Below, piece by piece: positions 18,650-64,000 of a DNA stretch of 64,000 bases. Numbering within the stretch: the stretch's first letter is position 1; each line of letters starts with the position of its first letter. Location of the stretch: positions 1 to 64,000 of the forward strand of contig JBDRRP010000055.1 of the NCBI GenBank assembly GCA_043825735.1. Direction: 5' to 3'. The notes beneath the pieces were generated by a model, which did not search any database, was not told where the DNA came from, and saw nothing but the letters and a program-made list of their open reading frames with translations. A program made the translations under genes and the position numbers. The DNA comes from Pseudomonadota bacterium. GTDB taxonomy: Bacteria; Desulfobacterota; Desulfobacteria; Desulfobacterales; JBDRRP01.

Positions 18650-19435
18650 TCAGATGCGCAGTTCAAGGCCCACCGGGCAATGGTCGCTGCCCATGATGGC
18701 GTTGTCGATAAAGGCGCCGGTGACCAGACCGTCGGCGATCATGTTTTCGGAAACAAAAAAATAGTCGATGCGCCAGCCGACGTCCCTGGCACGGGCGTTG
18801 AATCGGTAAGTCCACCACGAGTAGCGCACCGTGTCGGGATAAAAATGTCGGAAGGTGTCCACCCACCCGTCGGCGATGATCCGATCGATCCAGTCCCGTT
18901 CGATGCGCATGAATCCGGAGGTGTTTTCGTTGGCCTTGGGGTTTTTCAGATCGATCTCGTTGTGGGCGGTGTTGTAGTCGCCGGTAACCACCACGTATCG
19001 GCCCGCTTCCTTGAGTTTGTTCGCATGGGCAAAAAAGTCCCTGTAAAAATCAAGCTTGTAGGCGAGCCGCTCCGGGCCCATCTGGCCGTTGGGAAAATAG
19101 ACGTTGAACAGCACAAAGCTGCCGAAATCGATTTCGAGGATCCGCCCCTCATCGTCGTAGGCCGGTATTCCGATGCCCGTGGCAACCCGTGCGGGCGCGC
19201 TGCGGGCGTACACGGCTGTTCCACTGTAGCCCTTTTTGACGGTGGAATAGGACCAGTAGGCGTTGTAGCCGGGCAGGTCTTTCATCTGCGAGGTCAGCTT
19301 CACCTCCTGGAGTTTGGTCTCCTGAAGCGCCAGAATATCGGGAGCCAGCTGCGCAACGGACTCCAAAAACCCCTTTTTCATGGCCGCGTTCAGCCCATTC
19401 ACGTTCCAGGATATCAGTCGGAGGGTGTTGCCCAT
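18650..19435 (-). CDS. xth: Exodeoxyribonuclease III / AP endonuclease
   Basis: ISWNVNG, LQETK, GYSGTA, NVYFPNG, GDYNTAH, GWRIDYF, SDHCPV. Confidence 0.96.
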   Translation of the reverse strand: MGNTLRLISWNVNGLNAAMKKGFLESVAQLAPDILALQETKLQEVKLTSQMKDLPGYNAYWSYSTVKKGYSGTAVYARSAPARVATGIGIPAYDDEGRILEIDFGSFVLFNVYFPNGQMGPERLAYKLDFYRDFFAHANKLKEAGRYVVVTGDYNTAHNEIDLKNPKANENTSGFMRIERDWIDRIIADGWVDTFRHFYPDTVRYSWWTYRFNARARDVGWRIDYFFVSENMIADGLVTGAFIDNAIMGSDHCPVGLELRI

Positions 19436-46459: not shown

Positions 46460-46476
46460 TTGGCACTAAATTTGCT
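46460..46476 (+). promoter_or_regulatory. sigma54 (-24/-12) promoter of the major pilin gene
   Basis: TTGGCAC-TAAAT-TTGCT matches TGGCAC-N5-TTGCW. Confidence 0.8.
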
Positions 46477-61190: not shown

Positions 61191-62465
61191 TCATGGGCCC
61201 TGCACCCGCTGGAGGCCGTGGCGCTTCATTCGGGCGATGAGCGTTGTGGGGTTGATGCCGAGGGCTTGCGCAGCGCCGCCTTTTCCATAGATTTTCCAGC
61301 CGCACGATTCCAGGGCGGCGATCATGTTTCGGCGCACGAAATCCACTACTTGGGTTTCATTGAGCACCGCATGGGCGATGGCATCCGCTGGGATCACCGG
61401 GGGGCGGCGTCCGGCAGCCCCGTCTTCCGAAGCGCCGACCGTATCAAAGCGCAACCGACCTGAGTCGCTGAGGATCACCGCCCGTTCAACGGCGTTTTGA
61501 AGCTCGCGCACGTTACCCGGCCAGTCGTAGGCCGTGAGATCAGCGACATTGGCCCGACTGAGTGCGTATTTGGGACGGTTCATCCGATTGGCGACCTGCT
61601 GAAGAAAATGATGGGCCAGCAGTACGATGTCGCCTTTGCGCTCCCGCAACGGCGGAACGGTAATGGGGAATACGTTGAGCCGGTAAAACAGGTCTTCGCG
61701 GAAATGCTTCCTGTCGACCTTTTCCTTGAGATGTTGATTGGTGGCCGCGATCACCCGGACATCGACCTTTCTCAGACGCTCTTCCCCGATCCGCTCATAT
61801 TCGCCTTCCTGAAGGACACGCAGCAGCTTGCCCTGAAGTTCCAGCGGGATCTCCCCGACTTCGTCCAGAAACAAAGTGCCGCCGTCGGCGGCCTCGAAAC
61901 GGCCGGCCCGGTCCCTGATGGCCCCGGTGAAAGCCCCCTTGACGTGTCCGAAAAACTCGCTTTCATACAGATCTTTGGGAATAGTGGCGCAATTGACCTT
62001 GATCATGGGGCGTTCGTTTCGGCGGCTGCGCCGATGGATCTCCCGCGCCACCAGTTCCTTGCCGGTCCCGGATTCTCCCAAAATCAGCACGCTGGCGTCG
62101 GTCGGCGCCACCAGCTCGATCTGCTGGATCACGGTCTTCAGCACGGGCGCCTCCCCGATGATGTCCCCGCAGGCGTGCAGCCCCTCGAGTTCCTCCCGAA
62201 GAAAGACGTTTTCCGCCTGAAGCCGGTCCTTGAGCACCTTCAACTCTGCAGTGCGCAGGGCCACCGTGCTTTCGAGCGCATCATTGGCGGCGCGTATTTT
62301 CTCTTCGCTTTTCTTGAGCTCGGCGACGTGAATGCTGCAGTCCAGTTTGAGCGCGTCTGCGGTTTCACGCAGCACGCGCTCCGAAGCTTCCAGTTCGGCC
62401 ACCCGTCTGCGCAGCGCTTCTGTCTCCTGAAACTGTTGTTTGCCGGTCTTTTTGGCTCGAGCCAT
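61191..62465 (-). CDS. sigma54-dependent enhancer-binding protein (FhlA/NtrC-type AAA+ and Fis HTH)
   Basis: [64 protein letters not shown]. Confidence 0.95.
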
Positions 62466-62651
62466 GTCGTCATTTCCGATAACAGGGGGACCTGCTTATG
62501 TACAGTTCTCAAGTTGACTTTACCTGCGGCACTGCGTGGTGATCAAAAACATCAGGGGCTGCGAGTCACCGGCACGGTAATTGTGTTCTGTGCATAACCA
62601 GATAGGGAAAAACGCCGTTGCCTGTCGATAAGCATTATTTTGGAGTTTCTC

Positions 62652-62682
62652 AACAAAATCTTGATCGCATCAAAATTTTGAT
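62652..62682. promoter_or_regulatory. Tandem palindromes, candidate upstream activator sites
   Basis: AACAAAATCTTGAT (62652-65) and perfect ATCAAAATTTTGAT (62669-82). Confidence 0.6.
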
Positions 62683-62748
62683 TAATTCCGGTGGCGCCCC
62701 AAATGGCTCAATGCCGCGAATGCCGGGGCATCGCGCATCGGCCTGAAT

Positions 62749-62765
62749 TCGGCACGGTAATTGAA
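62749..62765 (+). promoter_or_regulatory. Candidate sigma54 promoter for the small-peptide unit
   Basis: TCGGCACG-GTAA-TTGAA: correct GG-N10 spacing with non-consensus A at -12. Confidence 0.6.
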
Positions 62766-62998
62766 AAGGATATAAGCGATGCGACCCCTCTCAGACAGAC
62801 GGCCCTTCCCGGAGCCAGTCGGCGCCACGCAGCGGCATACTCATGGTGGTGCTTCATTCAGCGGATCGGGCCGCCACCGGGAGCGTTCTTGACCTTTTCG
62901 GCGTAAAAGCGCACAGGCTGCGGTCGCCGGTAAGGCGATCGCCGTGAACTGAGCAGGGCGTTGCGCATGAATTCAATGATCAACCATGGAGGAGCGCC

Positions 62999-63151
62999 AT
63001 GAGCAATGATAATGATGAATCCAAAAAAGATGTCAGCGAAGAATCCGACAACCGTCAAGATGGCGACAGGGCCTGTTGCTTTGTGGTCGATCCCTGCGGC
63101 TGCTATGTGGATCCGTGCGGTTGCATGACGAGATATTCCTGTTGCTGTTAG
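62999..63151 (+). CDS. 50-aa Cys-rich peptide (not in the ORF track)
   Basis: GGAGGAG RBS; MSNDNDESKKDVSEESDNRQDGDRACCFVVDPCGCYVDPCGCMTRYSCCC-TAG. Confidence 0.8.
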   Translation: MSNDNDESKKDVSEESDNRQDGDRACCFVVDPCGCYVDPCGCMTRYSCCC

Positions 63152-63184
63152 ACAACAGGCCTGCGACAGAAAGGAGTTTCAGCC

Positions 63185-63376
63185 ATGAAGGACATTCTCA
63201 AACGCGACATTACCGGTGAATGTGTCGGCGAGTGCAAGGACACCGTAAACGAGGGTTACCGGAACCGACAGTCCGCTATCAATGCCGAAGGCGGCGACTG
63301 GCCGGACACGTTCCCCAGGGTGTCCAGTGCAAGCGCCCGTAACGCGCCGCCCGGGTTTCTCGGGGGACACGTCTAA
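63185..63376 (+). CDS. 63-aa hypothetical peptide
   Basis: AAAGGAG RBS; 33 nt after the Cys-rich ORF; followed by a terminator. Confidence 0.7.
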   Translation: MKDILKRDITGECVGECKDTVNEGYRNRQSAINAEGGDWPDTFPRVSSASARNAPPGFLGGHV

Positions 63377-63409
63377 GCGGTGACGCAGCAGCAACCGTGC
63401 AGACGGGTC

Positions 63410-63442
63410 GGACGCCTGCCGGCGCCCGGCGGGCGTCCTTTT
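63410..63442 (+). terminator. Intrinsic terminator closing the peptide unit
   Basis: GGACGCCTGCCGG-CGC-CCGGCGGGCGTCC-TTTT. Confidence 0.75.
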
Positions 63443-63524
63443 ATGGCAACGCCGAGAGGCTTGCCGAATCCGGCCTGCAGCGCAAACGCCTGAGGGTTGA
63501 GGCGATACAGCTGCCGGATGGTGC

Positions 63525-64000
63525 TCAGGCCGGGGACTCACCAGGCAGGATCACACCCTGCCCCGTGCGGCCGTTGATCTTTATGACCAGCGGCGCGTCG
63601 AGCCGGATGTGACGGATGTACTGCGATTCGGCAGCGGCCGGGTGGGCGTCGAGCCATTGATAGTCGAAACATCCGTCGGCGCCTTCGGTAATGGTAATGT
63701 AGGGGATTCCCAGGGCGGTGATGTTCTGGAAAAAATGCGAGCCCTGGGACGGATCGGCATGAAGCAGTTGGTTTCGGATCTCGACGATGGCGCCGACAGC
63801 CGAGATCTGGTGCCACTGCACCGGAATCCCCAGCCAGCGATCCGCCGAGCCCCAGCGGCCTGGCCCCACCAACAGGTAGGGCCGGTGCTGGGCGGATAAG
63901 TCGGCATTGATGCGGCCCACGGCCTCGGCCATCTGGGCGGTGGCGGCGGCCTCGAAGGTATCGGGCCGCACATACACCACGTCCCGGATGGTTTCCAGGC
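63525..64000 (-). CDS. C-terminus of a PEP synthase/pyruvate-phosphate dikinase-related protein (partial)
   Basis: YLLVGPGRWGSADRWLGIPVQW, DPSQGSHFFQNIT; frame open to the window edge. Confidence 0.75.
   Translation of the reverse strand, partial: LETIRDVVYVRPDTFEAAATAQMAEAVGRINADLSAQHRPYLLVGPGRWGSADRWLGIPVQWHQISAVGAIVEIRNQLLHADPSQGSHFFQNITALGIPYITITEGADGCFDYQWLDAHPAAAESQYIRHIRLDAPLVIKINGRTGQGVILPGESPA

Follow-up and report, generated by a model that had tools for sequence, protein, structure and literature searches.

A putative sigma-54 regulon dedicated to two microproteins in Desulfobacterales

Why would a sulfate-reducing bacterium devote an ATP-driven transcriptional switch to two very small proteins? 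The question is raised by a locus at positions 61191–63444 of a 64,000-nt stretch of Desulfobacterales DNA (contig JBDRRP010000055.1; hereafter the window), in which the gene for a sigma-54 enhancer-binding protein diverges, across a 533-bp intergenic region, from two short open reading frames (ORFs) that we call pepA and pepB. Direct reading of the region found the divergent activator, a pair of upstream activating sequences (UAS), a promoter word, the two ORFs and a terminator. Judging from these sequences and their relatives, we put the probability that the unit is a small dedicated sigma-54 regulon at about 0.9. The activator would bind the TCAA-N4-TTGA palindromes at 62652–62682 and, using ATP, would open sigma-54 RNA polymerase at CGGCACGGTAATTGAA, with transcription starting near 62776 (Table 1). 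The product would be a single transcript of about 0.67 kb that carries a leader, pepA, pepB and the terminator. The same activator would also act in trans on a second pepA copy, which lies on another contig.

The control layout and its activator

The original prediction had placed two palindromes between 62652 and 62682, and both were borne out, one perfect and the other imperfect. Their occurrence is beyond chance: at up to two mismatches, the palindrome is found three times in the window against 0.15 expected, and none of 100 shuffled sequences reached three. The −24/−12-like element that had been proposed downstream of them fared less evenly. It was located at 62750–62765 and is conserved in relatives, but the word alone is at chance level, with 9 matches in the window against 13.2 expected (at most two mismatches to the consensus TGGCACG-N4-TTGCW), and its −12 part reads TTGA in the window and TTGTA or TTGAA in most relatives instead of TTGC. 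Both points count against a sigma-54 promoter here; a canonical −12 part (TTGC/CTGC) is present in Desulfosarcina widdelii and at the pepB promoter of one other genome (G074, below). The significance of the unit therefore comes from the conservation of the whole layout in other genomes, not from the promoter word alone.

That layout, in which two or three TCAA-N4-TTGA palindromes lie about 70 bp 5′ of a GGCAC-N5-TTG promoter driving pepA and/or pepB, recurs in at least nine other Desulfobacterales genomes, including that of the cultured D. widdelii PP31. Our comparison set comprised 401 genomes of the same order (labelled G000 onward, G000 being the window's own genome). A strict pattern consisting of the UAS, a gap of 45–75 nt and the promoter gave 25 matches in 23 of these genomes, and the reversed pattern, used as a control, gave 2. 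At eight of the 25 (in G000, G040, G074, G155, G214, G298, G370 and G389), two or three sites at about −120/−99/−82 from the GG of the promoter are followed by pepA and/or pepB. At the remaining 17, a single site (two in three loci) precedes unrelated frames, and these have the appearance of chance matches. The UAS and promoter layout was also found in G038, at a paralogous locus in the window's own genome and in D. widdelii, where reading by eye gave three sites and GGCATGGCAATTGC. The D. widdelii module occupies about 3.6548–3.6574 Mb of NZ_AP021875.1. Among the 37 pepA genes of a set of named genomes, a script flagged the promoter word at seven.

The switch is associated with a sub-clade of pepA whose members have tails such as ...DPCCCTPRYISCCC or MTRYSCCC. 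Here the promoter reads [CT]GG[CT]AC[GA]-N4-TTG[AT]A and lies about 70–250 nt ahead of the start codon, and still further 5′ are two or three TCAA-N4-TTGA sites; a word of this class precedes pepA in seven of eight related loci. The two peptide families extend well beyond the switch, and sigma-54 signals are missing from most pepA and nearly all pepB copies (they occur at 1 of 29 other pepB loci examined). A search for related loci that started from a three-row alignment returned one locus. A looser scan for double palindromes was noisy, with matches in 97 of the 401 genomes, and revealed no further regulon members among the 30 loci returned, where the promoter and peptides were seen only at the already known G074, G155 and G389. 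Other double palindromes also recur, namely TCAYATGATTGARACNATCAAYAAATTGA (G179, G113, G289, G263) and TCAAACAATTGATTCCATCAATTGTTTGA (G319, G361, G213, G134), for example at loci L159, L174 and L178, and L182–L184; neither has a sigma-54 promoter or the peptides nearby, and both are probably operators of other regulators.

The order of genes behind the control region differs between genomes. It is pepA–pepB in the window, G040 and G155, pepB–pepA in G214, and pepA–PilZ-like–pepB in G389 and D. widdelii. In G074, pepA and pepB diverge around a shared UAS, each with its own promoter, that of pepB being the canonical CGGCACGGTACCTGCA, and in G298 a gene for an Fe/Mn superoxide dismutase (SOD) comes first in the operon, ahead of pepB and pepA, behind a UAS and TGGCATAACCTTTGTA. 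Since the unit persists across these arrangements, co-regulation appears to survive rearrangement. The gene for a small PilZ-like protein stands beside pepA in three genomes (at the own-genome paralogous locus, in G389 and in D. widdelii); for the c-di-GMP motifs RxxxR and (D/N)xSxxG of PilZ domains, one reads RRHPR and NYSRSG in the own-genome copy on contig C40 and RRSKQR and NFSESG in D. widdelii, and its Pfam PilZ score of 19.8 bits is below the cut-off of 22.5. Thus, the expectation that the unit would contain no enzyme or transporter is correct for the window but too narrow for its relatives, which add the PilZ-like gene in three genomes and the SOD in one.

The activator itself, predicted as a minus-strand enhancer-binding protein, was confirmed by Pfam domains: Sigma54_activat (PF00158, residues 102–268, E = 8.5e-73), AAA_lid_14 and a C-terminal HTH_8 (residues 381–415). 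Its GAFTGA loop can be read in the alignment with orthologs. Residues 1–101 match no Pfam domain and have a coiled-coil-like look. The protein falls under no named equivalog in NCBIfam, where the top match was NorR (374 bits against a cut-off of 476). It aligns end to end with the activators that adjoin the unit in G155 (538 aa), G040 (568 aa) and G298 (397 aa), and all four share a 22-residue linker and the recognition-helix region WKIYGxxGAAxxLGIxPTTLIxRMKR. Two further activators in those loci are of the receiver type and clearly distinct from this group. Targeted searches found orthologs with 60–61% identity in G074, G214, G038, G389 and D. widdelii, whereas paralogs reach at most 50%; the search of G370 found no ortholog. 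In seven genomes (G000, G040, G074, G155, G214, G298 and D. widdelii), no more than 4 kb separates an ortholog from the unit. The window's genome also encodes RpoN (Sigma54_DBD, 210 bits; G000:C4:92738–93211). Conservation of the layout and adjacency of an orthologous activator in seven genomes thus agree with what had been proposed, an ATP-driven sigma-54 switch for two tiny peptides.

Most orthologs carry an apparent input module. A PAS domain was matched by Pfam in G155 and G040, and the equivalent segment was read in G074 and G038, all in ortholog frames of 538–579 aa; the D. widdelii frame, at 556 aa, is close in length to these PAS-carrying forms. In addition, an N-terminal C-x6-C motif (e.g. 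EKCRLLESQC) is present in six orthologs, the conserved Cys pair sitting in the N-terminal coiled coil, outside the PAS domain. The window activator lacks both the PAS domain and the CX6C motif, and is an atypical form among orthologs most of which have one or the other or both.

Two microprotein families and their possible roles

The 50-aa pepA product, MSNDNDESKKDVSEESDNRQDGDRACCFVVDPCGCYVDPCGCMTRYSCCC, has a charged N-terminal half and a C-terminal half, CCFVVDPCGCYVDPCGCMTRYSCCC, with 9 Cys in the last 26 residues, arranged in CC, CxC and CCC motifs. A word-indexed protein search gave just three matches. A six-frame search of the order detected pepA in 45 of the 401 genomes (31 of 174 genera), and a profile run against 1.84 billion representatives gave 114 clusters, nearly all of 44–60 aa. 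Members share a common build: a variable, highly charged N-terminal segment of about 25 residues, in many cases with a weak (D/E)x(D/N)IKK motif, is followed by CC(C)-Y-V-V, then DPCGCYV in two to four repeats, with CCC closing the peptide. Searched as a degenerate DNA pattern, DPCGCYVDPC matched 37 genomes among 185,579 species, all of them Desulfobacterales, Desulfobacteraceae, Desulfosarcina or Desulfatiglandales, or labelled Thermodesulfobacteriota or 'delta proteobacterium'. In one 185-aa predicted protein (P0125), a coiled coil and a PAS-like region at the N-terminus precede a pepA-type Cys-rich tail, CCYMIDPCGCYYRVDSCGCRVVDPCCC; this may be a true fusion or a gene-calling read-through.

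The pepB product (63 aa, MKDILKRDITGECVGEC...PPGFLGGHV) has 12 database relatives of equal length and occurs in 74 of the 401 genomes (45 genera). Thirteen positions are invariant (R7, D8, G11, C13, G15, C17, Q29, A49, R52, P56, G57, G60 and G61), and the ...GGHV end, H62 included, is nearly so, giving the family pattern RDxTGxCxGxC...PGxxGGHV. Neither peptide matched Pfam, NCBIfam or PDB sequences beyond chance motifs (in PDB sequence profiles, lpg1496 'PCGCY' at E = 0.24 and Delta at E = 0.93), and the ESM Atlas had no usable match for pepA or for typical pepB. An AlphaFold model of pepB built from 37 sequences shows two helices plus a disordered tail; a pLDDT of 64 marks it as low-confidence and too weak to support a fold search. 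Modelling pepA together with pepB (score 0.01, with controls that did not fold) yielded no verdict. Both genes are present in 19 genomes, where their frequencies of 45 and 74 in 401 predict 8.3; related genomes are not independent in this comparison.

Both frames behave as protein-coding genes. Two pepB loci (L072 and L073) differ at 2/1/32 first, second and third codon positions, with 27 synonymous and 5 non-synonymous codons, and pepA of the window differs from its own-genome paralog at 16/7/27 positions; this third-position bias indicates purifying selection at the protein level on both peptides. The check originally suggested for the two ORFs, a homolog search combined with synteny to the activator, thus came out in their favor, with conserved frames in 45 and 74 genomes and synteny in seven, and the strong ribosome-binding site (RBS) ascribed to each ORF is present.

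What the peptides do is less certain than how they would be controlled. Our preferred reading, to which we give a little less than an even chance, is that pepA is a cytoplasmic metallothionein-like thiolate peptide that acts as a thiol buffer against metal or oxidant stress. The (DPCGCYV)n...CCC half would bind soft metals and/or consume oxidants, and the charged N-terminal half would keep the peptide soluble; pepB would be a distinct small protein of the CxxxC...His kind, produced under the same stress. We draw the link to oxidants and metals from the SOD in the operon of one relative (G298), from a heavy-metal P-type ATPase with two HMA domains that adjoins pepA in another (G325), and from the PAS and CX6C inputs of the orthologous activators.

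Neighboring genes were examined in 22 pepA loci, each with ±8 kb of flank, and in 30 pepB loci; Pfam was run on 65 neighbors from pepA loci of the sigma-54 clade and on 52 of 84 neighbors from the other pepA loci, those left out being mainly same-genus duplicates. Further pointers to thiol, metal and oxidant chemistry near pepA are a phytochelatin-synthase-like gene and a nitroreductase in G001, a homolog of the former about 6.5 kb away in G025, and aconitase in two unrelated loci. We saw no recurrent maturase, protease or exporter at the 22 pepA loci, and the 30 pepB loci share no neighboring gene. These results speak against a modified-peptide cluster and favor stress genes that stand alone and answer to different regulators, a TetR in three loci of one genus and the sigma-54 activator in others. 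At two pepA loci, L045 (6566–7948, G331) and L046, a dimethylamine methyltransferase gene a few hundred bases from pepA is divided into 348-aa and 104-aa frames, both matching Dimeth_PyL, the pattern that would be expected of an in-frame pyrrolysine codon.

Bacterial metallothioneins such as SmtA/BmtA and mycobacterial MymT are small, cytoplasmic, very Cys-rich proteins encoded by stand-alone genes under stress regulators. Low mass and a high Cys content in CxC and CC motifs are features that pepA shares with them. Otherwise it differs: there is no sequence similarity, the peptide consists of a DPCGCYV repeat with conserved aromatics and a long charged N-terminal half, it is under putative sigma-54 control, and its family is confined to Desulfobacterales-type genomes. 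Metallothioneins have few or no aromatic residues, and pepA does not conform to this. By Pfam, NCBIfam and PDB sequence it belongs to no described metallothionein family. Given the conserved Tyr/Phe and the lack of family similarity, we speak of functional analogy, not membership.

Several observations weigh against the buffer role. A Tyr or Phe is conserved in each pepA repeat, which is unusual for classical metallothioneins, and the Pfam metallothionein models do not match pepA. The SOD link comes from 1 genome of about 10 and the ATPase link from 1 of 22 loci. The window activator is sensor-less, so the stress link may not extend to this genome. The semi-conserved D/E-x-D/N-I-K-K could be a recognition element like those of modified-peptide precursors. 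The metal or redox role of pepA is one that we infer. A broader version of the buffer reading is correspondingly more speculative, and we regard it as a possibility at well below even odds: pepA would represent a new lineage-restricted class of thiolate peptides (DPCGCYV repeats, Desulfobacterales), in effect a new type of bacterial metallothionein, which together with pepB, a PilZ-like receptor for cyclic di-GMP (c-di-GMP) and sometimes SOD would make up an oxidant and metal emergency regulon, fired by its own sigma-54 ATPase with an ancestral thiol-based CX6C coiled-coil input, with or without PAS.

The first of the alternatives, which we consider unlikely, is that pepA and perhaps pepB are precursors of ribosomally synthesized and post-translationally modified peptides (RiPPs), in which a Cys-rich core behind a charged leader is cross-linked or heterocyclised by enzymes encoded elsewhere to yield a signal or antibiotic. 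Cys-rich RiPP precursors of the SCIFF/ranthipeptide type are short, with an N-terminal part and a Cys-rich C-terminal part, and pepA has this leader-plus-core shape; the weakly conserved N-terminal (D/E)x(D/N)IKK motif, Cys-x(2-4)-Asp spacings that are reminiscent of thioether-forming precursors, and the strictly conserved pepB ends point the same way. However, among the neighbors run through Pfam in the 22 loci no conserved radical-SAM, YcaO, lanthipeptide-type, peptidase or exporter gene adjoins pepA, and in particular no radical-SAM maturase of the kind relevant to SCIFFs is adjacent; nor does a conserved gene adjoin pepB in its 30 loci. No NCBIfam precursor family was matched, and the leader is mostly variable, low-complexity and charged.

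About equally improbable is a role in sulfur or Fe-S handling, with pepA carrying persulfide or polysulfide or scaffolding Fe-S clusters, and pepB forming a dimer with a Cys4 or Cys2His center that serves as a mini redox protein in redox stress. The invariant C13, G15 and C17 and near-invariant H62 of pepB would suit such a center, aconitase (itself an Fe-S enzyme) adjoins pepA in two unrelated loci, a DsrE-like gene lies near pepA in G040, and the hosts are sulfate reducers. These neighbors are not conserved, however; the low-confidence pepB model shows no metal-site geometry, and we found no sequence similarity to known carriers.

PspF has no sensor domain, and pspF is divergent from pspA; ZraP is a small metal-related stress protein. 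The PspF–PspA and ZraR–ZraP pairs of Enterobacteria resemble the present unit in that an activator diverges from a small sigma-54 stress operon. A third, Psp-like alternative is a feedback scheme in which one of the small proteins would bind the sensor-less activator and hold it inactive until oxidation or metal loading of its thiols, the peptides being the sensor and not the effector, and the PilZ-like protein linking the output to c-di-GMP. The sensor-less window activator, the divergent target operon and a regulon restricted to these tiny proteins fit the scheme. Yet most members of both families are found where neither this activator nor sigma-54 signals are present, and most orthologous activators have a PAS and/or CX6C input of their own. 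The unit differs further from PspF and ZraR: pepA and pepB show no homology to PspA or ZraP (neither peptide has a Pfam match), a receiver domain and a partner kinase are missing, and the products are only 50 and 63 aa. We rate the feedback scheme as still less probable than the two preceding alternatives.

The last and least probable alternative treats both ORFs as frames that arose by chance in intergenic DNA with no translation or function. Their shortness, the chance-level promoter word and the three matches of the first pepA database search could suggest it. It is already contradicted by third-position bias, by conservation in 45 and 74 of 401 genomes and 114 pepA clusters, by the RBSs and by the RNA-library contigs that cover the ORFs.

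Transcript, remaining features and the second copy

The features of the locus are collected in Table 1. A terminator completes the unit, as originally described; it consists of a 13-pair hairpin and a T tract. The second promoter-like word shares 14 bases, CGGCACGGTAATTG, with 62750–62763, after which TG follows; it may represent either a promoter in tandem or the scar of a duplication. Two other near-consensus sigma-54 words in the window, TGGCACGGGCGTTGAA (18787–18802, +) and TGGCACTAAATTTGCT (46461–46476, +), have one mismatch each. A riboswitch or other structured leader is unsupported, because Rfam gave no match in 62300–63600 and the leader folds no better than shuffled sequence (z-score 0.35).

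Table 1. Positions in the window of the genes and control elements of the unit
Feature	Position	Strand	Basis or remark
Sigma-54 enhancer-binding protein, 424 aa	61191..62465	−	Pfam domains and ortholog alignment
Second promoter-like word, CGGCACGGTAATTGTG	62570–62585	+	180 bp 5′ of the main word, also 5′ of the UAS
UAS site 1, imperfect palindrome AACAAAATCTTGAT, core ACAA-N4-TTGA	62652–62665	.	−98 from the −24 GG, as in relatives
UAS site 2, perfect 14-bp palindrome ATCAAAATTTTGAT, core TCAA-N4-TTGA	62669–62682	.	Counterparts at −82/−81 in 8 genomes
Sigma-54 type promoter word, CGGCACGGTAATTGAA	62750–62765	+	GG at 62751–62752; predicted start near 62776
Putative 5′ leader, ~223 nt	62776..62998	+	RNA-library contigs from 62794 onward
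pepA, 50 aa	62999..63151	+	RBS GGAGGAG at 62988–62994
pepB, 63 aa	63185..63376	+	RBS AAGGAG at 63171–63176
Intrinsic terminator, 13-pair GC-rich hairpin then TTTTAT	hairpin 63410–63438; whole 63410..63444	+	Ends the unit

One DNA run contains the entire stretch and may be its source sample. About 10% of sampled words were found in two sediment metatranscriptome runs from two studies, and contigs from these RNA runs match the stretch over their whole length at 97–99% identity, within 62794–63355. Run X2 covers 62794–63032 and 63058–63208, and run X3 covers 62835–63041, 63194–63246, 63205–63355 and 63257–63304; coverage begins 18 nt 3′ of the predicted start. The leader and both peptide genes are thus present in RNA libraries. 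This coverage is supportive of expression but not decisive: contigs give neither strand nor ends or start, and RNA libraries can carry DNA, which tempers the case for the predicted transcript. Over the activator, the only matches were conserved pieces of about 40 nt that belong to genes of other organisms. No RNA contig covers the activator, 62500–62793 or positions past 63355, and we place no reading on these gaps. One X3 contig leaves the window sequence at 63086 and continues with a sequence that still codes for a pepA-type repeat (...CYTVDPCGCY), so other pepA homologs are also present in that metatranscriptome.

A scan of the window's own genome for a single UAS followed by the promoter gave 12 matches, with two sites at the window locus only. 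The second pepA, on contig C40, retains UAS-like repeats and TGGCACGGATATTGAT, is followed by the PilZ-like ORF and faces a 199-aa remnant of the activator N-terminus. This C40 unit (L005, 7600–9400) has copies of an approximately 80-bp repeat (TCACCACAGAGGACGCAGAG...CTCTGTGGTCCTC) on either side, and looks like a decayed duplicate that was moved or framed by a repeated element. Downstream of the window unit, a convergent gene occupies 63525–64000 and beyond (L006, 8526–11516, −); its 996-aa product matches a receiver domain weakly and also contains an ATP-binding domain of the pyruvate-phosphate-dikinase type. The gene is not kept near the unit elsewhere.

Relation to described systems and biological meaning

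The regulatory logic of the unit is that of an ordinary bacterial enhancer-binding protein and sigma-54. Among described systems it comes nearest to OrpR of Desulfovibrio vulgaris (PMC8359166), a PAS activator dedicated to a regulon of two operons only, whose PAS domain senses redox through an Fe-S cluster held by cysteines. Common to the two systems are an activator devoted to very few targets, palindromic sites, sigma-54 promoters (putative ones here) and an anaerobic host that reduces sulfate, as well as a PAS input, which here is found in the orthologous activators. The differences lie in the targets, which have no relation to the orp genes and are two microproteins here, in the window activator, which has no PAS domain, and in the Cys pair of the orthologs, which sits in the coiled coil at the N-terminus and outside PAS. 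As far as its main text goes, supplements aside, a survey of the D. vulgaris sigma-54 regulome (PMC4641369) does not mention cysteine, superoxide or metallothionein.

Our literature search found no description of either peptide family. What is new is the payload: two unannotated microprotein families restricted to Desulfobacterales-type bacteria, together with a defined operator motif. These payloads are overlooked by standard annotation, although they occur in 11% (pepA) and 18% (pepB) of the sampled genomes of the order, with no database family for either.

Sulfate-reducing Desulfobacterales, dominant in marine and groundwater sediments, have to withstand pulses of oxygen and of metals. The genomes of these bacteria encode dozens of sigma-54 activators with mostly unknown targets, and here one of these is paired with its probable binding motif and its payloads. 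If pepA is a metal or oxidant buffer, it would represent a new class of bacterial thiol peptides, and the unit might then provide a ready-made pair of inducible promoter and activator. The full module is present in a cultured strain with a closed genome, D. widdelii PP31, so whether pepA plays this part is directly testable.

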